DNA from: Patescibacteria group bacterium
Lineage (GTDB): Bacteria > Patescibacteriota > Patescibacteriia > PEXW01
DNA: 64,000 bases
Reading direction: 5' to 3'
NCBI GenBank assembly: GCA_041671325.1
Contig: JBAZBR010000001.1
Location: forward strand, 415,504 to 479,503
Shown: positions 38,069 to 56,330 of the stretch, one piece after another
Position numbering within the stretch: the stretch's first letter is position 1
Layout: every line of letters starts with the position of its first letter
Notes under the pieces: generated by a model
The model's database searches: none
Told to the model about the DNA's origin: nothing
The model's input: the letters and a program-made list of their open reading frames with translations, nothing else
Translations under genes and position numbers: made by a program

Positions 38069-38075
38069 TTTTTTA

Positions 38076-41448: not shown

Positions 41449-41522
41449 ACAAAATTAAAATTGAGGTGCTCGAGTCTCGCCCCGCACCGTAATTCCGCAC
41501 GAGCGGAATGACTGGTGCGCGG

Positions 41523-41570
41523 GTGGTCAATATGCGCGATTATACAAAAGTTCCGAATGTTTTTAGGCAT
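41523..41570 (-). pseudogene. Divergent duplicate of the lepA 5' end (encodes MPKNIRNFCIIAHIDH then frameshifts/stops)
   Basis: 48 nt about 80% identical to lepA codons 1-16. Located 75 nt upstream of the real lepA start, separated by a GC-rich spacer. Confidence 0.6.
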
Positions 41571-41649
41571 AGATAATAATTAACAGTTTCCCTCTACCTC
41601 TGGGAGAGGGGGTTGGAAGAAACATACTTCTTAAAAATTTAATCATGGT

Positions 41650-43272
41650 TTAATTTGAATTACCCGGCTTATTACCATTATTTACAAAATTCCTGAATTT
41701 TTGCCACCATTGCCTAAAGACTTCCATTTCTTCAACCTTCAGAATTGATGCCAAACACAAGAATATTACAATGCCAAAAATTCCAGAGATTAAACCTTGT
41801 AAAAAGATGCCGACTAAAGTATGCATGTCTACACCCATTGCCACAAAATGCAAAGCTCCCCAAGCGCCAAAACCTGCAAACAATGAGGCGATGACAATTT
41901 TTACGCTTGACTTGGCAATATGCGCATCGTCCAGATTACCCAGCCGGCGTCGAAGCAAAAAATACAGCAAGGACATATTGACTAGACTTGAAATTGAAAA
42001 AGCCAAAGCCACGCCAATAATGCCGAAATGTTTTGAAAGGATGATGGCTCCGGCAATATCAATAACGACTGAAAAAATTCCTACTTTAACTGGGGTGGAA
42101 GTATCATGCAAAGCATAAAACGACCTGGCAATGATCGGGATCAAGGCTTGGGCAAAAATTGACAAGGTGAAAAACCCCAAAACCTGGGCAGTCAAATAAG
42201 TCGCGTTCCAATCAAAAGTCTGGGCGCCCACGACCACCCGGACGATTTGAGCCCGCAAAACTAAAAGCAAGACCGAAGTTGGGATCATGACTACCAATAA
42301 CCTTCGAATGGTTTTTGAAAAATGTTTTTTAAAAGCTTCCATGTCTTGGCTGGCATAAGCCTCGGAAAAAGCGGGAAAAATGGCGATGGCCAAGGAAACC
42401 CCGAAAACATTGATGGGAAAATTCTGGAGATTATTGGCAAAATTAAGCTGGGTTAAACTGCCAGCTGCCAAACTGGAAGCAATAATCGTGCTGACCAGCT
42501 GGTCAATTTGGTTGACAGCCAAGCCAAAAGTCCTGGGTAGCATAAGCTTCCCCACTTCTCTAACGCCTTTATGGCGCCAATTTAATATTCTTTGATAGCG
42601 GAATCCCAGCTTAAAGACGCTGGGGATTTGGATAGCTAAGTGGGCAAAAGCGCCCACGACCACGCCATAAGCCAAACCAATAATCCCCCATTTGGGCACA
42701 AAAAAAATGATGCCGGCGATTATGCCAAGGTTATACAAAACCGGCGCCAAGGCAAAAGCAAAAAACCTTTTGAAGGAATTGAGGATGGCGGAAACAATAT
42801 TACTGGCTCCGAAAAAAATTATGGCCACCAGCATTATCCGGCTTAAGTGGATGGTGGTCTGAAGTTTTTCACCGGAAAAGCCTGGGGCAATTAAAGGCAC
42901 CAAGTGATTGGCAAAAATAAAAAAGATTAGGCCTAAGACAATCAGGACGATCAGTAGCAAGTTCAAGATTGAATTGGCCACGCACCAAGCATCATCTTTC
43001 AGTTCTGGATTCTTTTCCGCCCTTTTTAAATAACTAACAAATACTGGAATAAAAGAGGAGGAAAGAGCGCCCAGCACCAAGACATTAAAGACAAAATCAG
43101 GGAGTTTAAATGCGGCAAAATATGGGTCCAGGTTGCCACCGCCGCCAAAAGTGCTGGCTAGCATCCGATCCCTGACTAAACCCAAAACTCGGCTGGCCAC
43201 GCCAGTAAAACCAATTACGATGGCGCCGCCAAGGATAGTGGTGGAGAGTTTGTGCCAAAGCTTCTTTAACAT
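41650..43272 (-). CDS. murJ: Lipid II flippase MurJ (MviN)
   Basis: 540 aa, about 14 TM, N-terminal VASRVLGLVRDRMLASTFG motif typical of MurJ. Confidence 0.88.
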   Translation of the reverse strand: MLKKLWHKLSTTILGGAIVIGFTGVASRVLGLVRDRMLASTFGGGGNLDPYFAAFKLPDFVFNVLVLGALSSSFIPVFVSYLKRAEKNPELKDDAWCVANSILNLLLIVLIVLGLIFFIFANHLVPLIAPGFSGEKLQTTIHLSRIMLVAIIFFGASNIVSAILNSFKRFFAFALAPVLYNLGIIAGIIFFVPKWGIIGLAYGVVVGAFAHLAIQIPSVFKLGFRYQRILNWRHKGVREVGKLMLPRTFGLAVNQIDQLVSTIIASSLAAGSLTQLNFANNLQNFPINVFGVSLAIAIFPAFSEAYASQDMEAFKKHFSKTIRRLLVVMIPTSVLLLVLRAQIVRVVVGAQTFDWNATYLTAQVLGFFTLSIFAQALIPIIARSFYALHDTSTPVKVGIFSVVIDIAGAIILSKHFGIIGVALAFSISSLVNMSLLYFLLRRRLGNLDDAHIAKSSVKIVIASLFAGFGAWGALHFVAMGVDMHTLVGIFLQGLISGIFGIVIFLCLASILKVEEMEVFRQWWQKFRNFVNNGNKPGNSN

Positions 43273-43656
43273 AGTTTGTGGAATTGAGTTTAGCTGAAAA
43301 GCCCAATAGTTTCAAGGTTTTTTATCGCACGTCTCCAGCTCCGTGAGAAAAAGCTATTATCATTGTCATTGCGAGAAGGCCAGTTTTTGCGGGACGACGC
43401 GGCAATCTCGCTTTACAGTGAAAGATTGCTTCGCTTCTCCCCGCGGCCGCGGGGTCGCCCGCAATAACAGGGTTTATACTGGTCCAAACTAAAAACCGCC
43501 ATCTTTATCAGATAACGGTTATTGGTTCTCCTGGCCGGATTACACCGTGCGAAAGATACCCGCGTCTTGCTTCCATTCATTAGGGAGAGAGTCCTTTTGA
43601 ATTTCATTAAAACGTGAGATCGTAAGAAGGGTAACCCGGCCGGGAGAAAATACTTT

Positions 43657-43767
43657 TGTCATTTCGAGCGAAGCGTAAGCGTAGTCGAGAAATCTCTTTG
43701 TAATAGTTGAGATTCCTCCGCTCGTCCTCGCTTAATCGAACTCGGTCGGAATGACAAAATGAAGTTT
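43657..43767. repeat. Imperfect inverted repeat (~45-nt arms beginning TTGTCATT[TC]CGA...) forming a MITE-like structure. Related motif copies at 43359 and 56480.
   Basis: Left arm ttgtcatttcgagcgaagcg...gaaatctc; right arm (reverse complement) ttgtcattccgaccgag...ggaatctc. Confidence 0.5.
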
Positions 43768-43858
43768 CACCCCGATTATAGTCCTCCTGCCTGAAAAGAC
43801 AAATTTTGTCTTTTCAGGAAGAGGAGCCAGTTTAAACTGACTCACTCAAGGTGCGGTT

Positions 43859-44242
43859 TTAATGCAATTTGAGCAAATTGACTTCGGCTGACCTACCTGA
43901 CCCCAGTTTATAACCAATTACCGAGCGTCCTAACGGAACCAGGTTTGAATCCTTGGCGGTTGCGATTATTACCGCACAAGCACTATCCTGATACAGCCGA
44001 TATGAGTACACGCTGGTATCCAGATCGGCATCAGGATAATAGATGGCCACATTGCTGAACAAAGAATCGCCCGCGTTAAAATGCCTCGACGCATTGACGA
44101 CTATTTGCAAAAGCTGACGCTCGCCTATAAAAGCGGTCTGCTCTTTCGAACGCTCAGTCTTAAGGTCGTTAATATAGCTAACCGCAAAGATTAACGATAA
44201 AGCTACCATAACGAAAAGAACCGTCAACACTCTACTGAACAT
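43859..44242 (-). CDS. Small membrane-anchored/secreted hypothetical protein (island gene)
   Basis: Start reassigned to MFSRVLTVLF..., preceded by AGGAGG 8 nt upstream. The track ORF extends to 44287. N-terminal TM/signal. Confidence 0.5.
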   Translation of the reverse strand: MFSRVLTVLFVMVALSLIFAVSYINDLKTERSKEQTAFIGERQLLQIVVNASRHFNAGDSLFSNVAIYYPDADLDTSVYSYRLYQDSACAVIIATAKDSNLVPLGRSVIGYKLGSGRSAEVNLLKLH

Positions 44243-44353
44243 ACAATATCCTCCTAAATCAACTTTATTTTTTAATCTCTCCCACAACCGACTTTTGTAA
44301 AATCAGCTCTGGGAGAGGAGCCAGAAAAGTATCTGGCTCAAAACGAACAATAC

Positions 44354-44743
44354 TCAATCAAGCGGTGACTGCAGATAATCGTCTGCCAGGCGATAGTATA
44401 CGCCGCAGACGAATGTGGTATCCCCTGAAAAATTCTCATCCCGGTACAGAAATTCCGAAGCTACGAATTTCCGGTTTTGGTTTTTCCATTCCTTGATTTT
44501 CTCATCAATCAACGGTTGTGCGATTGCGCTATCCGCCAAATTGTATTCAACTGGGATTTGAAGAACTAGTGCCGTGGAATCGGGATCTGTCCATGATCCA
44601 TGTGCAACCCCCAGCTCGCCATTAAAAACGATGACGGCGGTGTGGCTTGGAACAAGCCACGCATCCACGGCAATGCCAATCAGAATACCAAAAACCAATC
44701 CGATCGCGAAAACTGCAAAAACATTCCGCATCAAAACCTCCAT
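44354..44743 (-). CDS. Membrane-anchored hypothetical protein (island gene)
   Basis: Likely start MEVLMRNVF, with AAAGGA 10 nt upstream. The track ORF extends to 44824, across a terminator hairpin. One TM. Confidence 0.45.
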   Translation of the reverse strand: MEVLMRNVFAVFAIGLVFGILIGIAVDAWLVPSHTAVIVFNGELGVAHGSWTDPDSTALVLQIPVEYNLADSAIAQPLIDEKIKEWKNQNRKFVASEFLYRDENFSGDTTFVCGVYYRLADDYLQSPLD

Positions 44744-44812
44744 GTTTTGGTTATCCTTTTTTGTTTCTGTTTCTCCCCCACCCGTCGAAATTTTTTCAAC
44801 GCGTAAGGGAAA

Positions 44813-44842
44813 AAGGCAAACCACGGAAGGTTTGCCTATTCT
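44813..44842 (-). terminator. Intrinsic terminator-like hairpin after the 53-aa gene
   Basis: On the minus strand, ggcaaacc-ttccgt-ggtttgcc followed by tttttccc. Confidence 0.45.
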
Positions 44843-44853
44843 GCAATGAAATT

Positions 44854-45015
44854 TCAGCAGATGGAGGTATAATTAAAGCTCCAGGCTAAAGCACTCAAGA
44901 GAACAATTGTCATACCCGCGGGTATGACGAACTTTTTCGGCCGAAGGAACATGATCCCCAGCCCGATAGCCATGGTAAACACTGTGGCTATAAAAACCCT
45001 GGTACACAGATCCAT
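44854..45015 (-). CDS. Small (about 53 aa) two-TM membrane protein
   Basis: Start MDLCTRVF, preceded by AAAAGGAGAGG. The track ORF extends to 45072. Confidence 0.4.
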   Translation of the reverse strand: MDLCTRVFIATVFTMAIGLGIMFLRPKKFVIPAGMTIVLLSALAWSFNYTSIC

Positions 45016-45037
45016 ATCCTCTCCTTTTGTTTTGCAT

Positions 45038-45466
45038 TTAGTAATAAATGAACCTAAACAATTCTTTGACAACCGGGATGCACGAAGTCTTGGTTAGCTT
45101 TTTGGCAAGCCAGGAAAACCCAACCAAGACCAGACCAACGAGGGCAATTATGTAGTGATCCGAAGCGTTTTCCAAACCCTCGGTTGGATTTTTTACCAAT
45201 GCGGTGAAAAATCCAAACAGAAACAGGATAACGCCAACTATCAGTGAACTGGCCGCGAAATATACCACATAATACTTTGCGGTTATTTCCAGCCGGCGTC
45301 CACACAAATATGTAACGCATCCAAAAATCAGGTATGGCCATATAATGTAGTAAGCCAATCCTGGAACGTACCTGATTGGTAAGGTAACCATTAAAACTGC
45401 CAACAAAGCTGTTAACAGGGTGCAAACCATGACCCCGATCTCAAAAAATGTTTTCGTAAAAGTCAT
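45038..45466 (-). CDS. Polytopic (about 4 TM) membrane protein, unknown function
   Basis: Likely start MTFTKTFFEIG, with GGAGG 5 nt upstream. The overlapping other-frame ORF at 45054..45425 is judged spurious. Confidence 0.45.
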   Translation of the reverse strand: MTFTKTFFEIGVMVCTLLTALLAVLMVTLPIRYVPGLAYYIIWPYLIFGCVTYLCGRRLEITAKYYVVYFAASSLIVGVILFLFGFFTALVKNPTEGLENASDHYIIALVGLVLVGFSWLAKKLTKTSCIPVVKELFRFIYY

Positions 45467-45577
45467 CCAAACCTCCATGTTTGTTCATTTTTATTTCCTC
45501 TGAAAAGACTTTGTTTAAAATCTGTTCAGAGGAAATGGCGAAGTTTTTGAGGCTTCGCCAATCCAAAGAAAGTTACA

Positions 45578-46282
45578 TCACAGCTTGGTGATGTGCAAAC
45601 AAACATCGATGCCGTGGCCAATGGCAGGCGCCGTCAAGATGACGCTGATTGTTGAATTTGATGGCAATGCCAGGTCTATCGAAAACTTTTTATTTTCCAA
45701 AGACCATTTATAGGTTATGCCGTCAATCGTAACCAGTAAATCCTGCAAAGGCTGGTCATTCTGGGTTTCAGCGCTGAACTCCAGTCGATACGAACCGATT
45801 GGGTTCATGAGAAGCCAATTGATGACCTTATCGCACCCTTTCAGGTGCCCGCAGAATTTTTCACCGAGGTTGAGAGTGTCAGTGACGTAAACCGTATCCA
45901 CATGGCTACTATCGATAACGATCAGAGTAGACTCAGGCGGAACAACCCAGACGCCGTGTGAAGCTGTGGCAGTTTGGCCATCAGTCGAATTGACCAGCAG
46001 GCCAAAATCGAAATATCCGGTATCACTCAACCTGCCCTCAAAATAAGGCAAGTGAGTAATTACAGAATCTTTCAGATACCAGCTTGCTTGGTAGGGCTGC
46101 TGTCCACCGGTAATAGTTGCGAAAAGAAAAAACTTCTCGCCGACGTAGACAGTGTCAGGCCCCAGGATTCCGGCTTCCAGTTTCCCATACACTTCGGGTG
46201 AAACTGGATTGACCTGTTTTTCCGCGCAACCGGCAAAGATTGCCAGAAACGCCACGAACACGAGGAGGATAAACTGCTTCAT
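45578..46282 (-). CDS. Putative lipoprotein (signal peptide + AIFAGC lipobox-like cysteine), unknown function
   Basis: AGGAGG 9 nt upstream of the ATG. MKQFILLVFVAFLAIFAGC signal. Confidence 0.5.
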   Translation of the reverse strand: MKQFILLVFVAFLAIFAGCAEKQVNPVSPEVYGKLEAGILGPDTVYVGEKFFLFATITGGQQPYQASWYLKDSVITHLPYFEGRLSDTGYFDFGLLVNSTDGQTATASHGVWVVPPESTLIVIDSSHVDTVYVTDTLNLGEKFCGHLKGCDKVINWLLMNPIGSYRLEFSAETQNDQPLQDLLVTIDGITYKWSLENKKFSIDLALPSNSTISVILTAPAIGHGIDVCLHITKL

Positions 46283-47283
46283 TAGTGTTTACCTCCTGAG
46301 ATCGTGAACTGATAGGCAATAATCACACGAACGTGCGAATTCTCCCATTCAACTTCTTCGGTACCCCGCTGGTACACATACACTGGAGTCCAGACAGCAG
46401 CCAGAACCCAGCTTTTTGCGAAAGTCACCTGAGCCCCAAGCTCGGGTCCAGTTCGTTTCTCACCCCAGGGACCGTCGAAGTACCGGTTAATTTCGCTTCG
46501 TTGCCCACCAAAAATGAGTTCAAATGGTTTCTCCAACCAAGGTCGCACAAGAACATGGACTGAGCCGTATCTATAGATGTAGCTCATTTCTTCCTTGCAG
46601 TATGTACGATCTTCGCGGTAGAAAGAATAACCGCCCTCCAAAGCAATACGGAAGCGGTCATTCCCCCACTGAAGACATGCTATTGGCATAAAGCGTTCAG
46701 CCGGCGTATACGCTACGCCAATGCCGAACCAAATCCGGTTGTCGAAGTGATTAATCACTTCAGTTTTATAATTATTAACAACCGGCGCTAGTTTTGGCTG
46801 GGCGGCAAAAGCCGAATCAATTGAGTGCTGCATTTCTGCCGGTGTAACATACCGGTCGAACTGCACCACTTCGATAACGACTTTTCGATGATCGCCACCG
46901 ATTTTTTTCTCGTTATCCGGGTCAGGCATTCGTGGCCAGATCAAATCGCGAGGAGTGCCGCATTCTTTCAAATGCAAAGCGGCCCATTCATAGCGACTGA
47001 CCTTTAAAGCAGCTTCCAGCACGTCTTCCTTAGTCGGCGTATCGAATTTCAATCCGTCGACATAAGAATAAATCTTGATATAACGATGCTGGAATGCACA
47101 GACCGAATCAGTCAGCATTTGGAATACTGCCTGATTCTTTTTAGCCAGTTCCACCTGGCTCATGCCTTTTCCTGGTGCAAATCCAGAAATTTCTTTGCTT
47201 ATGATCACGGTTTCAGCCAAAGCCGAAACCGAAAAAATCACAAGCATGAGAAACGAAAGCAAGACTATCGTGAGTTTCTTCAC
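46282..47283 (-). CDS. Secreted protein with beta-strand-rich C-terminal half (possible outer-membrane beta-barrel)
   Basis: GTG start preceded by GGAGGT. Signal peptide MKKLTIVLLSFLMLVIFSVSALA. Alternating hydrophobic pattern in the last ~170 aa. Confidence 0.45.
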   Translation of the reverse strand: MKKLTIVLLSFLMLVIFSVSALAETVIISKEISGFAPGKGMSQVELAKKNQAVFQMLTDSVCAFQHRYIKIYSYVDGLKFDTPTKEDVLEAALKVSRYEWAALHLKECGTPRDLIWPRMPDPDNEKKIGGDHRKVVIEVVQFDRYVTPAEMQHSIDSAFAAQPKLAPVVNNYKTEVINHFDNRIWFGIGVAYTPAERFMPIACLQWGNDRFRIALEGGYSFYREDRTYCKEEMSYIYRYGSVHVLVRPWLEKPFELIFGGQRSEINRYFDGPWGEKRTGPELGAQVTFAKSWVLAAVWTPVYVYQRGTEEVEWENSHVRVIIAYQFTISGGKH

Positions 47284-47400
47284 TAAGTTACCTCCATGCT
47301 AAGGGTTTTTTCAATAATACGTTTTGTTGTTGGTTTTGCTAAAATATCTTAATTTTCAAGATGACTTTAGTAAAACTAACAAACCTCTATTAGGTTTATT

Positions 47401-47429
47401 ATATTATTTCTAATTGAGCCTTCTGTCAA
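47401..47429 (-). promoter_or_regulatory. Consensus sigma-70 promoter (TTGACA, 17 nt, TAATAT) about 110 nt upstream of the 333-aa secreted-protein gene
   Basis: Minus strand: ttgaca gaaggctcaattagaaa taatat. A 9-bp GC hairpin (47451-47483) lies just upstream. Confidence 0.5.
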
Positions 47430-47754
47430 AAATATGAAAAATAAATTGATGGTGTGCGGTTGCCCGAAAGCATTCCGCACACCACCATTTTTCCTTTTAC
47501 TTCGCCCGGTTTACGAATTTGCAACGAGAAAAAGCAAAAGGTCTTTAGCATATGGCTGTCTTGCCATGGTTGTGGTGCCAAGCATACCACCAGCCCGAAA
47601 TCATCTTCGGGTCCGAGGATCCAACCAAGTGATTATCTGATTGGAAATTTTTGTGAGGTTCTCCCACATTCCGCAGGACAAATTGCTTTCTCCTGCCGAA
47701 TGCAAGAAGGAAAACCACAGCGGTTCTCCTTCTAAAACGAACAGCTTATTTCCG

Positions 47755-47910
47755 TTATTCCAGTACTTCGCATCTTGCTTTCACTTCCGAAGGAATGAAC
47801 CCCAACGCGACATCGGCTGAAATGTCTCCGTCGTCCACTTTTGCGTCGAGAGCTCTATAGAACTCCTCAAACGCTAAGTCAAACTCGGCTTGCTCTTCAT
47901 GTGTCGCCAT
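47755..47910 (-). CDS. Small acidic protein (about 51 aa)
   Basis: Start MATHEEQ, preceded by AAAGGA 7 nt upstream. The track ORF extends to 47973. Confidence 0.35.
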   Translation of the reverse strand: MATHEEQAEFDLAFEEFYRALDAKVDDGDISADVALGFIPSEVKARCEVLE

Positions 47911-47962
47911 GTTTTCATCCTTTCTGGTGACCGAATTTTTGTCTTTAGTTTGTTTTTCGCGG

Positions 47963-48175
47963 CTACTCCACAACTCTTACGAGAATAGCCTCTTTCGCTG
48001 CAGCTCCTTCCATGGCGATTTCCATTCGCAATGGTTGTGTATTCAGTATTCCCACCAAACCGACAATGGCATCAAGAATAGCAGGCACGATTAAAACTGT
48101 TTTTCCATAAAATAACCATCCAGTTACGCAATAAAGCGCTGTTGCCAAAGCCGCATAAGATATAAGCCTCATCAT
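47963..48175 (-). CDS. Small (70 aa) two-TM membrane protein
   Basis: AAGGAGA 3 nt upstream of ATGATG; hydrophobic. Confidence 0.45.
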   Translation of the reverse strand: MMRLISYAALATALYCVTGWLFYGKTVLIVPAILDAIVGLVGILNTQPLRMEIAMEGAAAKEAILVRVVE

Positions 48176-48915
48176 TGCAAGATCTCCTTGTAATGGTTTA
48201 TTCGTTCATTTTTATACTTTCAAAAACAAGATTAAAGACGATTTAAAACCCCATCAAACCATCATCTTCACTGTTGTTTTAAAAAATTTGGGAGAGCGAG
48301 GGCCGAAGCCTCTCGCTCTCACCGGGGAGGAAGGAGGTGAACAATAAACATGCTTTACCAGGGAAGCTCCTTGGGATTTGACGAAAGAGAATGCGGCACT
48401 TGTCCCAGTGGATTGGAGCTTCCCTGATTTTTTTCTTTTTCCAAAAATACCAGTTTTATTGATACGCTTGGAAAAAGAGGCAACCGACCCTAATAAGCCA
48501 GTCGCCTCAAAATTTGGTTTCGCCTTGGAAACCTGCTTTTGTATGGCAATAAAGCCGCAAGCACCGCTAACGAAACTAGGCATTTTTATCAAAACAGGTG
48601 CCGCCTGTTGACCCGTACATCTTGCTGTCCTGCAACAGTCAAAATACCTACGGGTCCGAGGCCGTTCCCTAAGATACCAGGAAACTGATTTTTCAAGGCA
48701 ATTTCTGCCCGCAATTTACTTTTATAAAAATATTATAAAGGAAAATTCCCGAAAGAAATAATGGGAGGAGAGGATTTTGGGGTCCTACTCCTCCCTGGGC
48801 ACCATATGAAAGAAAATGAGGCAATGAGGCTAAGTGAGGCTTTTTAGTTTTTCTTTTTCTCTACTTTATTAAATAGTGGACAAGCAGAATTTCGGAAAAA
48901 TGATCGAACTATCGC

Positions 48916-49395
48916 TTAATTCTTGACAGCAAGACCGACAAAGAAGCCTATGACTAAAATAATGGGTATAACTCCCAATGACCAGTTGCCCAAGTTTGAC
49001 TTGATACGGATGGCTACCGCATTACCCCCGTCAAACGAGATCAACTCATAGGTCTGGGTAGTAAAATGTCCCGAATTCAAAACCGGGATATCCCAAGTCT
49101 TCATTTCGCGTCCAGCCGAAATTGAGATTATTCCACATTCAACTGAATCATGTGTGAGGTACGTCATAACCGCAAAGTCGTCTTCGGAAGTTTTAACTTC
49201 CGGCTCGACTCTGTTTACGGAATTCACGAAAGCGTCTCTTACCACATCGGAAAACGTCGCGCTTTGTAGCAACGTTTCAATCTGCGCCGTTTCATAAGCA
49301 GAAACGGTGACGTCGAAAACGGTGGCAGTTTTGGCAATCACAGGGTATGCCACAACACAGATCACGAATACGAGAATGATTGTCTTAAAATTCAT
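48916..49395 (-). CDS. Secreted/anchored hypothetical protein (signal peptide + C-terminal TM)
   Basis: TAGGAGC RBS-like element upstream. N-terminal signal; C-terminal VIPIILVIGFFVGLAV anchor. Confidence 0.5.
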   Translation of the reverse strand: MNFKTIILVFVICVVAYPVIAKTATVFDVTVSAYETAQIETLLQSATFSDVVRDAFVNSVNRVEPEVKTSEDDFAVMTYLTHDSVECGIISISAGREMKTWDIPVLNSGHFTTQTYELISFDGGNAVAIRIKSNLGNWSLGVIPIILVIGFFVGLAVKN

Positions 49396-49436
49396 TTCGA
49401 GCTCCTAAGCTAAATTGTTTATTTTACGTTTTTCCC

Positions 49437-49509
49437 TTTTTTCAACCGACGAAATTGCTTCTTCGGCTGGAAAAATCGCAGGATGCCGGATGGCATCCTG
49501 CAAAATGAC
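49437..49509 (-). terminator. Copy 1 of a repeated ~70-nt intergenic cassette: 10-bp GC hairpin (gcaggatgcc-NNNN-ggcatcctgc) + U-tract, then a conserved spacer leading into the next RBS
   Basis: Near-identical copies at 49776-49846 and 50985-51058. Each sits between consecutive minus-strand genes. Confidence 0.65.
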
Positions 49510-49749
49510 CTAATGCAAGCCAAGGTCTCTTGGGTTGACCTTAGTTAACACTATTAATATGGTCACCATCATCAAGCAAAATTCAAAAATTGCGGTGGTG
49601 AAGAAGCCAATACCCACTCCTATAATGATTGATGTGGGTTGCGCTTCAAATAAAGTGATGATTATCACCGCTATTGCTACTCCCAATCCTGAAGCGATCA
49701 CTAGATTGAGAGCCAATATCACCAACAGCGCTTTCATTTGAATTTTCAT
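49510..49749 (-). CDS. Small (79 aa) two-TM membrane protein
   Basis: AAGGAGA RBS-like element 5 nt upstream; flanked on both sides by the cassette. Confidence 0.5.
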   Translation of the reverse strand: MKIQMKALLVILALNLVIASGLGVAIAVIIITLFEAQPTSIIIGVGIGFFTTAIFEFCLMMVTILIVLTKVNPRDLGLH

Positions 49750-49775
49750 TTATTTCTCCTTTTTGTTTTTTTCTC

Positions 49776-49846
49776 TTTTTTCAACCGGAGAATTGCATCT
49801 TCGGCTGGAAAAAACGCAGGATGCCGGATGACATCCTGCAAAAGAG
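49776..49846 (-). terminator. Copy 2 of the repeated terminator cassette
   Basis: The same hairpin, with gacatcctgc in the second arm, followed by a U-tract. Confidence 0.65.
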
Positions 49847-50937
49847 CTAGTCTTCTTCGTAAGACCGGCAGACTTCACGTTTGATCTCATCAAAAACTAG
49901 GCGACTCGATCTAGCTTTGCGAGGAATCCGAGTTGGATTAACCCGATCTACAAAACTGCAAAGCGCTACTTGCGATCGCTGATATTGCTCTTCCAGCTTT
50001 TCAAGCCAGCGCCTTTTTTGTGCCTCCTCTCTCGCTCGTTTGATATCCTGCTCATCAAACTTTTTCAGAACAGCGTTTCCAATCACAATAGCTATGAAAA
50101 CTACGCAGAAGGTCCCGACAGCAAGATACATGACGTTCGCGGAATGAGTGGCGTTGAAGATCCGGCCCAGCACCATGAAAATGACAAAAGTCAAAATCGG
50201 GTAGATAGGCCGGAACATCCACAACCATGGCTTATTCCAGTACCAGGACTGATCCCAATAAATATATTTGGGTTCGCCAGAAAATATATCAATCCGGAAA
50301 GGGTTGACATATTTCCAATTTGGCACTCGGCCGATTGCCAGGTTCCACAGGCAAACCACGGCATTGACCAAAACCATAAAAATCCAACCAATTGCCACAA
50401 TAAACGGCTGGAGGGAATAGGCCGGAAAAATCCGGCGACGGCGCATATGGCATTGGTCAAAAGCTGGATGGGTAAACCAGAAATTTACCCATTTCCAGTC
50501 CCAGGGTTTGGCCGGAAACAGTTTCGGATCAACAGCAACGGTTTCCATCGCTTGGTCCATGGTGTTTTCCAGGTCATTGAGAAACGCCGAATTGCCACTA
50601 TTTAAAACTGTTGTACGATATTTACTATCCGACCTGCTAAGGTAGTTATCCTCAGGAGAAGACAGCTTTATTCCATTTTCAGTCTTATCCCAGCAAATGG
50701 TGATGAAAATTCGGTGTGCACCTGAGGATTTGAAGGGAATGTAAAAAGCTAGTTCCGACAGAGGCCGGATATATCGATGCTCATTTTTTTTCTTGACCGA
50801 ATAATCAACGATCAAGACGCATGGGTTTTCTCGGCTTTCACTTTTCAGCTTAGCCAAGGTTTCGGCGTTCGTGCACCACCTGACCACTGTGGTCGGATTG
50901 GCTGCGACTTTACTCTCAACAAACAACTGAAGCATTT
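49847..50937 (-). CDS. Hypothetical membrane protein (about 363 aa: N-terminal soluble domain, 3 TM, C-terminal charged coiled-coil-like tail)
   Basis: Start reassigned to MLQLFVESKV, with AAGGAGG 4 nt upstream. The track ORF extends to 51091, reading through the repeated cassette. No recognisable domain. Confidence 0.5.
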
Positions 50938-50984
50938 TTCCTCCTTTGAATTTTAGCTTCTTTTTAATTCTGTTTTTTAGTTTT

Positions 50985-51058
50985 TCTCTTTTCAACCGAC
51001 GAATTGCTTTATCGGCTGGAAAAAGTGCAGGATGCCGGATGGCATCCTGCAAAATGAC
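50985..51058 (-). terminator. Copy 3 of the repeated terminator cassette
   Basis: The same gcaggatgcc/ggcatcctgc hairpin followed by a U-tract. Confidence 0.65.
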
Positions 51059-51094
51059 TTTTCGAGATAGTCCTACTGTCACAAACGACATTGA

Positions 51095-51478
51095 TTAAGG
51101 CCGCCAATGCCGTTCCTCAAAGTCAAGGTGTTCAACTTGACCAAGAGGAAGATAGAAAACTGCGATCGTATCAAGGGAACCATCATCCTTTTGCCAAAAA
51201 CACAGTTTTTGTCCGTATGACGGCAACGCGTCGTTCACGCGCACAGATGGAAAATTTTGCTCAGTGAGCGTATCAAAAGGCGGTTCTTTGCCAACCGCCA
51301 CAAAATAATCAACGACAACTTTCGTCTCGCCGTCGATTTTGACGGTATGTACTCTGTAGCTGAGTACATCAGCTTCCTTCGGAATCCCTTTACTTATCAG
51401 GCTCATGCCCCAGCCAACCGAAAAAATGATAGCAAGAGCTATTACGACCACGATAACGTTACTTGTTCTTCTGTTCAT
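51095..51478 (-). CDS. Small membrane-anchored hypothetical protein (127 aa)
   Basis: AGGAGG 5 nt upstream; N-terminal TM VIVVVIALAIIFSVGWG. Confidence 0.5.
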   Translation of the reverse strand: MNRRTSNVIVVVIALAIIFSVGWGMSLISKGIPKEADVLSYRVHTVKIDGETKVVVDYFVAVGKEPPFDTLTEQNFPSVRVNDALPSYGQKLCFWQKDDGSLDTIAVFYLPLGQVEHLDFEERHWRP

Positions 51479-51618
51479 TTCTACCTCCTGTTAAACATTT
51501 AGTTTTTAATTTTTTCATTTTCTCATCTCGAATAACCTTTTGAAAAGATTAACCGGGACGAAAGCAGAGTTTAAGAAAATGTAAATTTTTAGGTACTCTG
51601 CAAAACCCTCAATTTCTA

Positions 51619-51861
51619 CTAATCAGTCTCCATGTAAAGCACGAGAGCATCACGAAGACTTTTGTACAGCCATATGCCTATACTTATGATCCAGTTTGTC
51701 ACATAAGCAATACCAACAAACACGACTGCTAGAGTTAACCCCGCAATTGGCCACTTAACATCCTTAAGAGTAAATGAACAGTGGTAGAAGAAAAAAAGGT
51801 ATACTGGACAAAAAATTATATACCTTTGAGTCTTTTTCCAAAACATTGGGAACTCAGACAT
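51619..51861 (-). CDS. Small (80 aa) two-TM membrane protein
   Basis: GAAGGA RBS-like element upstream; hydrophobic. Confidence 0.4.
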   Translation of the reverse strand: MSEFPMFWKKTQRYIIFCPVYLFFFYHCSFTLKDVKWPIAGLTLAVVFVGIAYVTNWIISIGIWLYKSLRDALVLYMETD

Positions 51862-52077
51862 TTTTTCCTTCTTTCAAAATTGGTTTATTTTCTTCTATTT
51901 ATTTGAAGACATAAAATCCAAATATCTTGAATTAATCTTTATCTCCCCAAGTAAATAGAAAAAATTGTCAAGGTGCCTTCCCTTTTCTCGCAATTATTCA
52001 AAATCGCTTTACTTAACATACCCGCGCTTGCATGGCAAAAACCAGATCCTCCCAAAAAGCGTGGTATGAGAGCGCCT

Positions 52078-52195
52078 GTCTTTAAATAAAGGCTGCTTTT
52101 TTGCCCTTGCTCTCTCGGCAAAAAAGCCAGTAAATGCGATTTTTATGAATTAACAAACAACAGGGAAATATAGTCTATTTCTTGAATTTTGTCAA
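52078..52195 (-). ncRNA. Candidate small RNA / transcription attenuator: consensus sigma-70 promoter followed ~80 nt later by an intrinsic terminator
   Basis: Minus strand: TTGACA (plus 52190-52195), 17 nt, TATATT (plus 52167-52172). Hairpin ggcttttttgcc / ggcaaaaaagc(ag)cc at plus 52091-52130, followed by UUUAUUU. Confidence 0.35.
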
Positions 52196-52320
52196 GCCCA
52201 TGTACCACTAAGGTTAGCCATTTTTATTCCTCCCAAACCCGTTCCAGTCTTCGGCTTTCCCGCACCCGCCTTCGATACCTTTGCAAGGGGAGGAGCTTAA
52301 AGAATTTTGTATAAAAAATT

Positions 52321-52358
52321 GGATTAAAAAGAGCTTCTGCAATTTCTGCAAAAGCTCT
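52321..52358 (-). terminator. Terminator-like hairpin after the 909-aa gene
   Basis: Minus strand: agagcttttgcag-aaa-ttgcagaagctct followed by ttttt. Confidence 0.4.
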
Positions 52359-52423
52359 CATTTGTTCATTTTACACATATGGACTTTCCAAGTTTCCAGG
52401 TGTGTAGGCTAAAGACCGGTTTT

Positions 52424-55153
52424 TTACTTAACCAAGAGCATTTTCTTGGTTTGGGTGAAAGATCCAGCAGACAAGCGATAAAAATAAACCCCCGAAGCGT
52501 ATCTGGAAGCCTCCCAGGTTTTGGCGTACTCGCCCGCTTCCTGGTATTCATTCAATATCGTTTCCACTTTCTGGCCCAGAAGGTTATAGACTTCCAGGCT
52601 GACTTCGCCGGCTTGAGGCAAAGTATAACTGATGGTCGTAGTTGGGTTAAAGGGATTGGGATAATTCTGGCTCAAAGCAAATTCTTTAGGCAGAGAAACA
52701 TCTTCCTCTGTTTCAGTATTTTGCTTCATTAATCCAGAACCGCTGGCGTTGAACTTGCCCATGATAAATCCATTAGTATAATCCCAGCCATAGCCTTCAG
52801 CCCGCCACCAGTAAGCCTGGTACAGAAAGCTGGAACCCGTGGACAAGAAAGAGTGGATAGCGCTGGAATACTGGCCATAGCGACAGGCCATGACGACATC
52901 AGCGTAACCGTCGCCATTGATGTCGCCCATTTGCATATACGGCATGGCATCCAGACTGTAGGAATCAAAATGCCACCACCAGCCTCGGTAATTAAAGCCT
53001 GAACCCGTGGAAAGAAAAGCCAGAAGCGCAGTTTCGCTTGGGCCATAACGGCAGGCCATGACTAAGTCTGATTTGCCGTCGCTATTCAAGTCGCCCATTT
53101 CCATGAACTTCATGGCATCTAGACTGAACCAGCCATCAGCCCAGAACCAGTACGGCACATAATTGAAGTAAGTGCCGTTGGTAAGGAATACATGGAGGGC
53201 GGTACTGGCTGGACCATACTTATAAGCCATGACAATATCGTCCCCGCCATCACCATTCAAATCGCCCGCGCTTACGAACTTGACGGCTTCGGCGCAGTAC
53301 CAGCCCGGCGCATGCCACCAGCCTTCATTACCCTGGTATATGAAATTCGTACCAGTGGAAAGCAGGACATGGATGCGAGTATCGCAACTACCGTAATTAT
53401 AGACTACGGCGATATCATCTTTGCAATCGCCGTTAAAATCCCCAGACACCGCGCCCTTGATGGCATAAGTGCAATAGCCGTTTGATTGCCACCAATAAAC
53501 CTGGTATTCAAAGCTTGAACCCCGGCTTAGAAGCATGTGAATGCCCACGCTGGATTCGCCATATTTGTAAATCATGGCAATATCCGTCAAGCCATCGCCG
53601 TTATAATCCCCGGCTATGCTCTTAAAAACGTACTGCAGGCAATAATTATTGAGGATTTTCCAGCCATCATTGCCTTGGTAGGCGAAGTTAGAGCCGTTGG
53701 AAAGCAGTACGTGCGCGCGGGTTTGGCAACCGCCGTAATCATACAAAACCGCCAGATCAGACTTGGGATCAACGATGCCAGTTGAGATGTGCACCTGGAT
53801 TGGCCAGACTTGCGTACCCGCAGCATTGTAAGCGTAAACAGTTCCCCCGCGCTCTTCCATCCGGCCAGTCTTGAAGTATTGGACATTGCCTTCGCGATCG
53901 CGGGTTGGCGCGCCAATGACCCAAGCCCCGGCTTCCTGGATGTTGGTATAGGTATCCAGGAAGTTTCCATACAAATAATAAGCTTCGTTGGTGGCTTCGG
54001 GATTGGTGTAATTGCGGGGGTCATAGAAAATCATGCCCCTGCCCCGCGCTCCCCAATTGAATTCTTGGACGCAATAATCCGTGGCCCGGCCAAAAGCTGG
54101 CCAATTGGAGACGACCTTTCCCATCGCCTCGCCAACCATTTGCCTGGCACCGTTTCTTTCATACGCCCGAGCAATCAAGTATGAGTGCTGGTTATCCCAG
54201 CCGGAATTTGTCCAGCCTGGCGCGCAATTCGGATATTGGTTTACGGAAACCGAACTGCCGTTCCAGTACAAGTAGCCTTTTTGGAAGTCCTGCCTGGCAT
54301 TGCCGTAACCCGCATACTCATTGTTTATAGGCATGCCCAGCGAACTTTGCGGACCATTCAAACTGTTCCACTTGCCGTAAAAGCCGGTTTTTACCACGTA
54401 GGCTTTTCTGGCACCGCCTAAAGCGTCATAAACAATGGCACAAGCACCATAAACAGTACCGAAATAATCCTCACGATAACAGCGTCGGGCGCAGTTATTG
54501 GCATCATAGCGGTCGTTGCTGTCCCAATTTCCCGGCCACCATGCCACGTTACTGACCTTGTTCCCAATGCTGCTGCCATGACGGACTTTCTCAACTTCAA
54601 AGATGTTGCGGTTGAGAGAAGTGTAACGATGTTGACCATCATCTGAATAAGAACAGTTCGATGGCCCAGTTGGCGTCCCGATATCCTCGAAATTCCACGG
54701 AATCGAACTTCCATTCACCGCGGTTTGATGTTGGTAGTGAATATGTGGCCCAGTTGAATTTCCGGTAGTACCACACATTCCTATGACTTGCCCTTGCACA
54801 ACGTACTCGCCAACTTTAACTACGACGCTTTGCAAATGAGCTAAACGGTCATACGATGATTCACCTATTTTTATCTCAACGGTATTGCCCCAACCATCGT
54901 TATAACCACCACCATCATACACGGCAGCTACAACTCCCGAATTCGACGCTAAAACTGGTTTGTTTAAGTCACTTGTACTGATTGTCCCCCAATTGAAATC
55001 GAATCCATATCTGTAGACACTTACATGTCCACATTGATCCTGTCCGCGGCTGCACCACCAAGTTTCCCCATACATAAATGGGGCTTTCGTACCAGCTATA
55101 GCAGTGGACACAATAGCCATAGCCAATACGACAACAGTAAATACCTTCTTCAT
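52424..55153 (-). CDS. Large secreted multidomain protein: N-terminal M23 (LytM) metallopeptidase domain, central FG-GAP/VCBS repeat region, C-terminal T9SS-type sorting domain (Por secretion tail)
   Basis: AGGAGG 9 nt upstream; signal peptide. M23 motifs H..L......G..V..G..IG..G.TGNSTGPHIHY. At least six GDxNGDG repeats. Por-tail C-terminus (NYPNPFNPTTTISYTLP...GVYFYRL). Confidence 0.7.
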   Translation of the reverse strand: MKKVFTVVVLAMAIVSTAIAGTKAPFMYGETWWCSRGQDQCGHVSVYRYGFDFNWGTISTSDLNKPVLASNSGVVAAVYDGGGYNDGWGNTVEIKIGESSYDRLAHLQSVVVKVGEYVVQGQVIGMCGTTGNSTGPHIHYQHQTAVNGSSIPWNFEDIGTPTGPSNCSYSDDGQHRYTSLNRNIFEVEKVRHGSSIGNKVSNVAWWPGNWDSNDRYDANNCARRCYREDYFGTVYGACAIVYDALGGARKAYVVKTGFYGKWNSLNGPQSSLGMPINNEYAGYGNARQDFQKGYLYWNGSSVSVNQYPNCAPGWTNSGWDNQHSYLIARAYERNGARQMVGEAMGKVVSNWPAFGRATDYCVQEFNWGARGRGMIFYDPRNYTNPEATNEAYYLYGNFLDTYTNIQEAGAWVIGAPTRDREGNVQYFKTGRMEERGGTVYAYNAAGTQVWPIQVHISTGIVDPKSDLAVLYDYGGCQTRAHVLLSNGSNFAYQGNDGWKILNNYCLQYVFKSIAGDYNGDGLTDIAMIYKYGESSVGIHMLLSRGSSFEYQVYWWQSNGYCTYAIKGAVSGDFNGDCKDDIAVVYNYGSCDTRIHVLLSTGTNFIYQGNEGWWHAPGWYCAEAVKFVSAGDLNGDGGDDIVMAYKYGPASTALHVFLTNGTYFNYVPYWFWADGWFSLDAMKFMEMGDLNSDGKSDLVMACRYGPSETALLAFLSTGSGFNYRGWWWHFDSYSLDAMPYMQMGDINGDGYADVVMACRYGQYSSAIHSFLSTGSSFLYQAYWWRAEGYGWDYTNGFIMGKFNASGSGLMKQNTETEEDVSLPKEFALSQNYPNPFNPTTTISYTLPQAGEVSLEVYNLLGQKVETILNEYQEAGEYAKTWEASRYASGVYFYRLSAGSFTQTKKMLLVK

Positions 55154-55223
55154 TGTTACAGACCTCCTGAGACATAGTCTCGGTTTAAGTTACTATTTAA
55201 TTGTCAACGTACGTTTTTTAGAT

Positions 55224-55970
55224 TTACTTAATTAAAAACGAACTAATAATGTTGTTAAATGTATTTAAAGCCGAAGTCCTAATATCCCCACCTGAGTAGA
55301 GCCGAAGAAAAATGAATTTTTTTTCATTGTAAACAATTTGAGACATCAGTTGAGGAACAGAATTACTAGCGAAAAGCTTACTTCCAATTCCATGGTTATA
55401 CCCAACTGAAGTACTTTGCGTTACCGATATACCCGCAAACTGAATTTGTCTCTCTGTATGACTAATTTCCTGACCCAAATCTTGAGCAAATTCCCAACCC
55501 GCCACTTTTGTATTTTGAACACCTATATCGATATATGATTGATTTAAATATAATCTTGTCCAAGGATCGCGAACATCTTCTGTGGTTATATCACCGTTGA
55601 GTAGAGAAATTCTAAGTAGGTCATTATTATCAACGGCTGAAATTTTCCAATCTTTTGGATATTTAAAATTGATACCATAATTATCGTTGACATATACCTT
55701 CCATTCACTAGTATTTACATTACTATTCGCATTTCCATTAAATCCCGAATTTACGTTCAAGTTTGAATTTACGTTAATTGGGGAATTAATATTTACATTC
55801 TGGTTAGTTTTATTAATAATATTGTCGTTATTGGTATTAATATTCTCTTGTTTTAACAAAAAATATCCGACGATTAATAAAGCGGCAATAATTACCCCAA
55901 ATATTACCCAGGCGATAATTGTGTTTTTTGGGGTATTTAAGGGCTGATTTTGAGGGTTATTTTGGTCCAT
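55224..55970 (-). CDS. Membrane-anchored hypothetical protein with Asn-rich low-complexity linker
   Basis: AT-rich, no Shine-Dalgarno site (host-like). N-terminal TM IIAWVIFGVIIAALLIVGYFLL. Confidence 0.5.
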   Translation of the reverse strand: MDQNNPQNQPLNTPKNTIIAWVIFGVIIAALLIVGYFLLKQENINTNNDNIINKTNQNVNINSPINVNSNLNVNSGFNGNANSNVNTSEWKVYVNDNYGINFKYPKDWKISAVDNNDLLRISLLNGDITTEDVRDPWTRLYLNQSYIDIGVQNTKVAGWEFAQDLGQEISHTERQIQFAGISVTQSTSVGYNHGIGSKLFASNSVPQLMSQIVYNEKKFIFLRLYSGGDIRTSALNTFNNIISSFLIK

Positions 55971-56039
55971 AAATGATTAATTAATATTTGCTTAATTTAA
56001 GGCTATCACACTTTTTGGCTAAAAAAGACAAAGTTATCC

Positions 56040-56330
56040 ACGATAAAACCGCGACGGCGCGACGGCGCTCGGGTCACCGCGAATGTCGGGTTTCGCGTGC
56101 TATTAGTGGGTTATAGCCCGCTTCACCCTTTATTCGCGTGCCCCTCTACCCCATCCCGCCGTATGGCGGGACGTGCTCACTACGTTCCGCGCCACATCTG
56201 CGGGGATCCCCTGATTTTTAACCAAATGTGCCGCTCTTCTTCACAAACCCGTGCTCGTCACGCTGCTGCGAGCCTGCGCTCCTGTCTTGTGGGGACCCCA
56301 AAATAAGAAACCTTAAATAATCCTGCATTC
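56040..56330. other. About 290-nt GC-rich (~60%) noncoding block in AT-rich surroundings; candidate structured RNA or decayed foreign fragment
   Basis: No protein-like ORF. Multiple short GC stems (ggggatcccc, gcgacggc x2). Confidence 0.3.

Follow-up and report, generated by a model that had tools for sequence, protein, structure and literature searches.

Gene content of the locus upstream of murJ

We analysed a 64,000-nucleotide (nt) stretch of a Patescibacteria genome (contig JBAZBR010000001.1 of assembly GCA_041671325.1, positions 415,504 to 479,503; hereafter the window), focusing on a run of small genes located between the lipid II flippase gene murJ and a gene pair that encodes a predicted peptidoglycan hydrolase. 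An initial annotation had delimited an island at 43273-55223, with the border placed between the hydrolase gene and its partner gene. We think it somewhat probable that the locus comprises two native but atypical modules in a Parcubacteria-type chromosome, namely a flexible, lineage-conserved cassette array (43.3-52.4 kb) and a separate hydrolase gene pair (52.4-56.0 kb). The array genes, whose starts were checked, all lie on the minus strand. The genes of the island and its left anchor, with their Shine-Dalgarno (SD) sequences and transmembrane (TM) segments, are as follows.

39598..43272, minus strand, lepA and murJ, conserved anchor genes; no SD, GC 43.9%
43859..44242, minus strand, 127-aa N-terminally anchored protein; SD AGGAGG
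44354..44731, minus strand, 125-aa N-terminally anchored protein
44854..45015, minus strand, 53-aa protein with two TM segments
45038..45466, minus strand, 142-aa multi-TM protein, homologous to a 140-aa array protein of locus L128 (see below)
45578..46282, minus strand, 234-aa putative lipoprotein (...IFAGC); SD AGGAGG
46282..47283, minus strand, 333-aa secreted protein of no recognised fold; no Pfam or PDB match
47755..47910, minus strand, 51-aa acidic soluble protein without a hydrophobic segment
47963..48175, minus strand, 70-aa membrane protein; SD AAGGAG
48916..49395, minus strand, 159-aa protein, signal-like segment at the N terminus and TM anchor at the C terminus
49510..49749, minus strand, 79-aa protein with two TM segments; SD AAGGAG
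49847..50935, minus strand, 362-aa membrane protein with an FN3/Ig-like N-terminal domain, three TM helices and a C-terminal helix
51095..51478, minus strand, 127-aa N-terminally anchored protein; SD AGGAGG
51619..51861, minus strand, 80-aa membrane protein; weak SD GAAGGA
52424..55153, minus strand, 909-aa secreted peptidoglycan hydrolase (predicted); SD CTCAGGAGGT upstream

At least one hydrophobic segment was found in 13 of the 14 products, the sole exception being the 51-aa protein. Besides the 909-aa hydrolase, the products range from 51 to 362 aa, and these 13 proteins gave no match in Pfam, NCBIfam or PHROGs. The coding content is thus as the initial annotation had described it, with about a dozen small membrane or secreted proteins lacking recognisable domains and one 909-aa protein of M23 peptidase, FG-GAP repeats and a type IX secretion system (T9SS) C-terminal domain (CTD). 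The 362-aa protein had been read as a 414-aa open reading frame (ORF), of which the true start is M53 (50935). Its conserved cysteines lie in the motifs VRWC, DQCxFRRRR, LxC and KVCRPF, and it belongs to a large, unannotated family of 911 clusters (50% identity, E <= 1e-3). A scan of the genome collection with one alignment of this family (A3) found nothing, the patterns derived from it being too narrow, and a word-indexed profile search with another, very divergent alignment (A2) returned only three proteins. For the 333-aa protein, which the initial annotation had taken for a putative outer-membrane beta-barrel, a single-sequence structure model reached a predicted local distance difference test score of 34.5, which is of low confidence.

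Related genomes carry similar arrays upstream of murJ

The initial annotation had suggested a horizontally acquired (or chimeric) module; a one-off acquisition would be absent from the same site in relatives. However, three relatives have an array of this kind ahead of murJ (loci L011/L012, L128 and L129/L130); they are covered by four metagenome-assembled genomes (MAGs), and their MurJ proteins are 76-85% identical. In L011 (GCA_003597955.1, Ca. Parcubacteria) and in L012 from a second MAG, a member of the 362-aa family (RJO59763.1) lies within a run of small hypothetical genes, and the order of genes (array, murJ, lepA, bPH, a ~200-aa gene of 192-218 aa, a 253-aa gene and a PDZ protease gene) is that of the left flank of the window. 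MurJ and LepA of L011 are 85% and 82% identical to those of the window, respectively. A search with MurJ added L128 (GCA_964486505.1), L129/L130 (GCA_964362715.1) and L131. In L128 and L129/L130, 3-4.5 kb of small ORFs lie between a DUF4012 gene and murJ, and all of these loci, including L131, contain the same block from lepA through to an S8/FG-GAP protease gene. The L131 contig begins 240 nt upstream of murJ, with the array region outside its sequence.

These relatives are not close genomes, because the synonymous sites of lepA and murJ are saturated (third-position identity ~0.5 at identical residues). A recent transfer of lepA-murJ from an L011-like donor was also considered and ruled out, as third-position identity is ~0.5 in every gene. 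The comparisons indicate no more than a strong conservation of MurJ in this clade. The arrays have two to three protein families in common with the window, as well as several noncoding elements. The 362-aa family is present in the window and in two copies in L011, and the 142-aa family in the window and L128 (phmmer E 6.5e-10; tblastn E 2.6e-7). The 127-aa protein at 51095..51478 is weakly related to a 124-aa protein of L011 (E 2e-3). Both genes are found upstream of a 362-family gene, in L011 with one further gene in between.

Two features of the conserved block were observed in addition. The lepA-murJ spacer contains a 78% identical copy of the first ~55 nt of lepA (MSTNIRNFCIIAHIDH...), 122 nt upstream of the original (41401-41455 and 41523-41577); in L128 and L129, murJ and lepA overlap and no spacer is present. 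The protease at the far end of the block is a 712-aa fusion of a subtilase (S8) with FG-GAP repeats (window 33913-36051, minus strand; L128 16846-18984; L129 16908-19049; L131 7338-9476), retained in the three relatives whose fetched sequence extends there. Its gene has no SD, and its FG-GAP part matches that of the hydrolase genes in L005-L007 described below (tblastn E ~1e-8), making it a second secreted protease-plus-propeller protein in the clade.

Strong Shine-Dalgarno sequences distinguish island genes from their flanks

To score SDs, the 20 nt 5' of each start were paired with ACCUCCUUA, an anti-SD that may not be the host's own, and an SD was called at a duplex free energy (dG) of <= -6 kcal/mol. 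SDs were present in 12 of the 14 island genes (median dG -10.0), whereas among the 45 flank genes (median -0.5) only two had one (Fisher p = 7e-9), in agreement with the contrast drawn by the initial annotation. This contrast is robust to the choice of start, since an SD could be assigned to just 7 of the 45 flank genes when any in-frame ATG, GTG or TTG within the first 60 codons was allowed. Moreover, GGAGG occurs on the sense strand at 1.34 per kb in the island versus 0.39-0.48 per kb in the flanks. In the relatives, SDs were found in 8/8 array genes versus 0/5 flank genes of L011, in 5/5 versus 0/15 of L128 and in 6/7 versus 3/14 of L129. Of the two transcription signals that had also been attributed to the island, terminators are indeed enriched (35 terminator-like sites versus 19.2 +/- 4.6 in shuffled sequences), but sigma-70 promoters are not (37 promoter-like sites versus 30.6 +/- 5.0).

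The housekeeping genes without SDs fit a survey in which the anti-SD motif was found in only 48% of Parcubacteria, one subgroup often being without a detectable anti-SD (PMC9297842). We looked for the 3' end of 16S rRNA in the fetched loci, and none is present there. In the MAG GCA_964362715.1, rplJ-rplL is preceded by pyrH and not by rplK-rplA (L008 13092-14939), a gene order that fits, without proving, an assignment to the uL1-lacking Parcubacteria subgroup that the survey links to a missing anti-SD. Either the anti-SD is retained, with SD initiation reserved for the array class, or the GGAGG boxes serve another role.

In Bacteroidota, translation is SD-independent, and a few SD-led genes such as rpsU are served by special ribosomes. 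Here too, housekeeping genes lack SDs and a small, defined set of genes has strong ones; different from Bacteroidota, this set consists of the array of small membrane proteins and the secreted hydrolase rather than a ribosomal protein gene. We further consider, as a speculation that is rather unlikely to hold in full, that two initiation modes coexist in this Parcubacteria clade, SD-less initiation for housekeeping genes and SD-dependent initiation for an envelope regulon composed of the murJ-proximal array and the M23/CHAP-FG-GAP-CTD hydrolase. This regulon would lie behind conserved CU-rich/GA-rich leader hairpins and be turned on or off either by a factor that binds the leaders or by how available the 16S anti-SD is, thereby remodelling the cell surface or host interface, and the CTD would be re-used outside T9SS or aimed at a T9SS-bearing host. 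Patescibacteria represent a large share of bacterial diversity, of which gene regulation and the building of the host-facing surface are almost unstudied, and SDs together with conserved leader RNAs marking one gene class in otherwise SD-free genomes offer a concrete, testable case.

Conserved structured RNAs precede murJ and the array genes

The island contains noncoding gaps of 586, 471, 740 and 562 nt. The initial annotation had pointed to such large gaps, and we found that they hold conserved structured elements. Several noncoding stretches are 75-88% identical across genomes despite the saturated synonymous sites. Rfam 15 gave no match at gathering score in the window, and relaxed thresholds yielded only chance-level matches. 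The elements, including tandem-hairpin leaders that fall into families, are as follows.

43494-43520, terminator-like hairpin after the murJ-leader RNA
43522..43652, minus strand, murJ-leader RNA of 131 nt with three nested helices, directly upstream of murJ; in the relatives at L011 7652-7782, L128 9807-9936 and L129 9750-9879
43654..43759, minus strand, insertion of ~107 nt resembling a miniature inverted-repeat transposable element (MITE), with 18-nt terminal inverted repeats
43768..43825, minus strand, conserved hairpin followed by TATAAT, 83% identical to L011 7584-7643
44278..44316, minus strand, family C hairpin CUCUCCCAGAG..UUGUGGGAGAG, ahead of the 127-aa gene at 43859..44242; fold z = -4.0
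44771..44837, minus strand, family B leader (GC hairpin at 44814-44837, then hairpin CUUUUUCCCUUACGCGUUGAAA..UUCGACGGGUGGGGGAGAA at 44771-44813), upstream of the 125-aa gene; fold z = -6.9
47664..47736, minus strand, conserved noncoding element consisting of a hairpin followed by CGGCAGGAnAAAGCnATTTGTCCTGCGGAATGTGG, 82% identical over 73 nt to L011 1400-1470
49412..49505, minus strand, family A copy 3, upstream of the 159-aa gene; fold z = -4.15
49750..49843, minus strand, family A copy 2, upstream of the 79-aa gene
50961..51054, minus strand, family A copy 1, upstream of the 362-aa gene

The murJ-leader RNA is the best supported of these elements. It is 85% identical between the window and L011 although the synonymous sites of murJ and lepA are saturated, and it occurs as a single copy directly 5' of murJ in the window and in every relative with sequence available there (L011, L012, L128, L129 and L130). 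Its fold comprises 36 pairs, in which 95.8% of the cells are paired versus 32-54% in slid controls, and compensatory changes were found in 11 pairs versus at most two in the controls; for instance, helix P1 is formed by GGCCGGGUUAC/GUAAUCCGGCC in the window and by GCCCACCGGAU/AUCGGUGGGC in L128. No Rfam family matched it above chance level. From its position and covariation it looks like a candidate cis-regulatory leader or riboswitch of the lipid II flippase gene. The hairpin at 43768..43825 likewise shows a compensatory change (GACA/UGUC to GGCA/UGCC), and together with TATAAT it is a probable terminator plus promoter ahead of the murJ-leader RNA. The MITE-like insert, which is not found in L011/L012, separates this promoter element from the leader RNA. 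The stretch separating the leader RNA from murJ (43273-43500) has another palindromic repeat, of the 'ATTGCGGGCGACC...CTCGCAATGACA' type; with the MITE-like insert, it shows that small mobile repeats accumulate at this site.

The leaders of the array genes are tandem hairpins of four families, A-C in the window and D in the relatives only, and those of the window fold with z of -4.0 to -6.9 against shuffled sequences. In family A, which has three copies in the window and four in L011, a variable GC hairpin with a U-run is followed by a CCAGCYGA..CGGYTGAAAA hairpin, an A-rich tract and the SD. The family B hairpin (consensus ...CUCCCyCAmGCGUUGAAA..UUCGACGGGUGGGGGAG) recurs in L128 upstream of the genes at 8720 and 9266 and in L129 upstream of that at 8163. 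The family C hairpin is the ctctccc/gggagag hairpin that the initial annotation had noticed near 44283; it proved to be real, its motif also lying upstream of the L129 gene at 9484, with a partial copy at L129 9094. Family D carries an anti-SD-like CACCUCCAGAUYGA sequence. The covariation-supported RNA upstream of murJ and these four leader families are thus new objects for study.

In L011, the counterpart of the element at 47664..47736 leads a 95-aa gene. The window element has neither an SD nor an ORF after it and is thus probably what is left of a decayed cassette, and the sequence of the gaps suggests that at least part of their DNA probably originated in this way. The 740-nt gap (48176-48915) contains several long stable hairpins, e.g., GGGAGGAG..CUCUCCUCCC, and two clean terminators; no SD-led ORF and no similarity to the relatives' loci were found in it.

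The hydrolase gene pair is a separate, recurrent module

The 909-aa protein begins with a hydrophobic segment (residues 4-22) followed by AIAG, which we call heuristically as a Sec-type signal. An M23 domain (residues 60-144; PF01551, 64.2 bits versus a cut-off of 28.7), an LGFP-like middle part (weak match), about six FG-GAP repeats (70 bits, above cut-off) and a T9SS type-A CTD (residues 831-906; PF18962, Por_Secre_tail, 41.9 bits versus a cut-off of 27; TIGR04183, 47.7 bits versus 23) follow. The HxH motif of M23, HIH in the window protein, is kept in all M23-bearing homologues (alignment A5). The remaining ligands appear to be the Asp of a (W/F)DF motif and a His 8-12 residues upstream, a non-canonical spacing by which their assignment is inferred. 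Full-length homologues (39-58% identity) were found in several Patescibacteria MAGs and in one MAG labelled Zixibacteria, and in some of them a CHAP domain replaces M23 on the same scaffold. Two further features precede the gene.

55202..55207, minus strand, -35-like TTGACA box within the 70 nt that separate the partner gene from the hydrolase gene
55224..55970, minus strand, 248-aa partner gene encoding an N-terminal TM anchor, an Asn-rich linker and a PsbP-like domain with 'W(K)xY..KYP'; GC 32%, no SD

A partner gene of the same architecture directly precedes the hydrolase gene in the loci L005, L006 and L008. The partner proteins of these three loci are clearly related (mutual E 2e-46 and 3e-32), and the window protein is more weakly related to them (E 1e-5 and 4e-4). 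The island border placed at 55223 therefore splits a gene pair found in four genomes. The motif (A/C)(G/T)TTGACAA occurs at the same place within spacers of 67-77 nt in the window and in L005, L006 and L008, and the hydrolase gene is SD-led in all four contexts. In L005, L006 and L008, almost all of its neighbours are without SDs (one other SD-led gene in L006).

The surroundings of the pair vary. It follows a large serine recombinase gene in L005 and L006/L007, in the latter among restriction-modification (RM), relaxase and integrase genes, whereas in L008-L010 the hydrolase follows ftsE-ftsX in a core region with rplJ-rplL. In the MAG GCA_964362715.1, the hydrolase pair (L008) and the murJ array (L129) are on different contigs. 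Additionally, the DNA immediately 3' of the hydrolase genes (CAACTAACAATyAACAC, a GC hairpin and a T-run) is conserved in L005 (6182-6230), L006 (12710-12760) and L008 (10049-10105) although their hydrolases are only ~46% identical; the window is without this tail. Its conservation suggests that the unit of promoter, SD, gene and terminator travels or persists as a whole.

Like the FtsEX-coupled EnvC/PcsB and the other M23 endopeptidases of the LasA/lysostaphin/LytM type, the protein has an M23 domain with HxH, and in one relative the homologue's gene comes immediately after ftsE-ftsX, as is classic for hydrolases of cell division. In alignment A5, the His-Asp spacing appears long as in LasA, not HxxxD. 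Different from these enzymes, the hydrolase combines either M23 or CHAP with an LGFP-like part, an FG-GAP propeller and a CTD, and it always follows a TM-anchored PsbP-like gene. As in T9SS type-A cargo such as gingipains and mirolase, an N-terminal Sec-type signal is present and the last 80-90 residues match TIGR04183/PF18962. The CTD is canonical in sequence, being 45-63% identical to CTDs of Ignavibacteria, Zixibacteria and Balneolales, members of the Fibrobacterota-Chlorobiota-Bacteroidota (FCB) group, and a genome scan with alignment A5 seeded on QNYPNPFN returned only CTD matches, all in FCB MAGs. The host, however, is a Patescibacterium, and Patescibacteria are generally held to lack an outer membrane and T9SS; hence, the CTD probably acts as a plain beta-sandwich module. 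No T9SS machinery (SprA, PorV, PorU, GldKLMN) was seen among the window proteins that were scanned or had precomputed Pfam matches, which are part of the window's ORFs, and nothing relevant on T9SS CTDs in Patescibacteria or Parcubacteria was found in the literature. A recurrent Patescibacteria wall hydrolase with a T9SS-type tail, in organisms thought to be without T9SS, is thus a new object of study.

We propose the following mechanism for this module. The TM-anchored PsbP-like gene is followed by the promoter, the SD and the M23/FG-GAP/CTD gene, whose product would be exported by Sec and would cleave peptidoglycan cross-links, be it in a partner or host cell or at the septum of the producing cell. 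Binding or anchoring would be the task of the FG-GAP propeller and the CTD beta-sandwich, the latter not acting as a T9SS signal.

Composition and assembly of the region

The initial annotation had called the island compositionally foreign, which is valid only in a limited sense, in that the region has its own GC, oligonucleotide signature and translation signals. GC is elevated to 44.8% over 43273-55223 (43.6% with the M23 gene excluded), compared with 36.4% in the left and 35.8% in the right flank. The 48-50% stated at first was an overestimate, as only the M23 gene reaches 49-54%. The right edge at ~55200 is sharp. By contrast, the left edge at 43.27 kb is a change in gene content and not a compositional border, because lepA and murJ are already array-like (GC3, the GC at third codon positions, 0.46-0.48) and the rise begins at lepA (39.6 kb).

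The base-composition-normalised trinucleotide signature of the window array correlates with its own flanks at r = 0.72-0.74, lower than flank with flank (0.83-0.92), and with the L011 array at r = 0.91. The L128 and L129 arrays correlate with each other at 0.74, above either of them with its own flanks. The GC of array and host flank is.436 and.36 in the window,.428 and.465 in L011,.525 and.565 in L128, and.457 and.585 in L129. Array GC thus stays at 43-52% across hosts of 36-58%, and the offset changes sign between genomes.

That the region is an assembly chimera, a Patescibacteria contig joined to DNA of another organism, is extremely improbable. The shifts in composition and SDs would suit this explanation, and two Logan contigs, assembled from SRR6484324 by a second assembler, do end inside the island. 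However, the breaks (~49507 and 51029) coincide with 94-nt family A repeats rather than with the borders, each of which (43.3 and 55.2 kb) lies intact inside one identical contig. The first contig (22,291 bp) reaches ~49507 and its fetched part is 100% identical to 35650-49272, and the second (5,033 bp) is 100% identical to 51029-56061. The window itself is a section of a 618,411-bp contig (k141_710309, ENA ERZ27249449) whose proteins carry the NCBI label 'Patescibacteria group bacterium', and the identical sequence suggests that both assemblies derive from one sample or from closely related ones. A chimera is therefore contradicted more strongly by the recurrence of the murJ-array junction, bridged by the conserved murJ-leader RNA, in independent MAGs of other studies. 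These data indicate that an 'island' of GC and SDs in a MAG is not necessarily contamination or a chimera.

Origin and possible role of the array

The composition of the region differs from that of the host (GC.448 versus.36), as in a horizontally acquired island. On the other hand, neither a tRNA in the window, nor an integrase or transposase domain in the island, nor direct repeats at its borders, which the initial annotation had proposed to look for, were found, and its suggestion of a cryptic mobile element is unsupported. The island had no match in PHROGs, phage genomes or IMG/VR, none among BFVD viral folds at E <= 0.001, and a single sub-threshold match (E 0.004) to PADLOC defence models. 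A cryptic prophage or integrative element, with the small proteins acting in lysis or exclusion and M23 as endolysin, would account for the atypical composition, the terminator-rich monocistronic units, the MITE-like insert and the serine recombinase before the hydrolase pair in two other genomes. It is nonetheless very unlikely, given the missing structural and replication genes and a chromosomal site conserved across genomes with saturated synonymous sites. We regard as equally unlikely a cluster of attC sites lacking integron-integrases (CALIN), in which promoterless small ORFs lie between attC-like sites on a fixed platform. Co-oriented small ORFs lacking an assigned function, each with its own ribosome-binding site, lineage-specific families of imperfect palindromes between them, varying content at a fixed site among relatives and host-independent composition are what a CALIN would show. 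Yet no intI or other tyrosine recombinase gene lies near the array, there is no attI/Pc, and in a motif comparison, made with no dedicated attC model, the repeats were without RYYYAAC/GTTRRRY core boxes. Instead, they are two tandem RNA-type hairpins, the first a terminator, and the sense RNA folds better owing to G-U pairs. A metagenome scan with the family A core did yield attC-like sites with AAC...GTT boxes, but its 35 loci comprise one repeated coding region, attC-like sites and chance matches, and none encodes island proteins. The integron lead was dropped because the similarity had been imposed by the search pattern, the AAC/GTT boxes are absent from the island repeats and nothing island-related is encoded at these loci.

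Transfer of all 12 kb from a bacterium of the FCB group that uses SDs and has a T9SS (Ignavibacteria, Zixibacteria or Bacteroidota) would explain the bona fide type-A CTD, the SDs and GC unlike the host's, and the full-length homologue binned as Zixibacteria (P0006, ~39-42% identity). We consider such a recent acquisition quite improbable, since the top five full-length homologues (54-70%) either have no label or are named Patescibacteria by NCBI, and the Zixibacteria-labelled one comes sixth (39%). Moreover, the 362-aa family includes a Parcubacteria MAG protein, its L011/L012 members lie in a syntenic array, the relatives have arrays with these leaders at the corresponding position, and no genome from outside the candidate phyla radiation was found with an array gene. 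An effector-immunity locus, as suggested by the initial annotation, in which the M23 hydrolase would be an antibacterial or host-lysing effector and the small membrane proteins downstream would provide immunity or accessory functions, seems improbable as well. A secreted M23 enzyme with adhesion-type repeats does adjoin many small envelope proteins, and polymorphic effectors typically show such an exchange of catalytic domains (here M23 and CHAP) while the C-terminal scaffold stays constant. However, we found no positive evidence for this pairing: no array-type genes come after the hydrolase in L005, L006 and L008, no hydrolase adjoins the arrays of L128 and L129, a gap of 562 nt separates the two in the window, and in GCA_964362715.1 the hydrolase pair lies beside ftsEX on a contig other than that of the array.

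The locus is therefore native, position-conserved and unusual in its expression signals, and belongs to the flexible genomic island type. As in hypervariable islands at hotspots, it has a fixed position by a core gene (murJ), varying content, atypical composition and mostly envelope or surface products. Unlike in those islands, each gene is insulated by a terminator, a structured leader and an SD in an otherwise SD-less genome, the leaders are better conserved than the proteins, and no tRNA, integrase or insertion sequence lies at the borders. Its new parts are the murJ-leader RNA, the families of leaders, the 362-aa family and a class of genes marked by SDs in Patescibacteria that otherwise have few.

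In this reading, each cassette of the array is a self-contained unit that starts with the hairpin of an intrinsic terminator; a second, conserved hairpin of the leader comes next, then an A-rich tract and a strong SD, and finally a short ORF, which in nearly every case encodes a membrane-anchored or secreted protein. The site and the leader families are conserved among the relatives, and the genes turn over fast, the only shared ones being the 362-aa, 142-aa and perhaps 127-aa families. The fixed site, conserved leaders, fast gene turnover and host-independent GC together suggest that cassettes are gained, lost and exchanged from a clade-wide pool at a hotspot. SD-dependent translation may be reserved for the array genes, and their products may remodel the envelope or host interface.

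Several points weigh against the reading as a cassette array with a separate hydrolase pair. No recombinase or other exchange mechanism was found in or beside the array, and most of the small proteins have no detectable homologue even in the arrays of the relatives. With so few protein homologues, calling these the same array relies on two to three families together with the leader RNAs, the position and the architecture of the genes, in a comparison that covers only four related genomes. The array signature could derive in part from noncoding content and TM-rich proteins rather than from a shared pool. Furthermore, if the clade lacks the 16S anti-SD, the conserved GGAGG motifs cannot be classical SDs. 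A T9SS-type CTD in an organism presumed to be without an outer membrane is not accounted for, and the physiological role and activity are predicted from sequence alone.

Additional features of the flanks and of metagenomic loci

The attC-like sites mentioned above form a family (gcccAACaatt TTTTCCAGCCGACCGTCAAAGCCCGGCGGCTGAAAA acacGTTrgg) in sediment and freshwater metagenomes (L094, L098, L103, L104, L106, L108, L113-L115, L117, L118 and L125) that is unrelated to the island genes. In the right flank of the window, ~270 nt of noncoding DNA (56040-56310) with ~52% GC in surroundings of 35% GC lie between the 248-aa gene and a uridine-kinase-like gene and have no Rfam match. A 'GTCATTGCGAG...CGAAGCAA' repeat, of a kind common in genomes of uncultured bacteria, is located at 56483-56510. 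Further on, a 251-aa gene (57351-58106, minus strand; no domain), which is one of the two SD-led genes of the flanks, overlaps by 4 nt with a gene for a 415-aa protein with a weak SIR2 match (58103-59350, minus strand), and the two could be a small defence-type pair.

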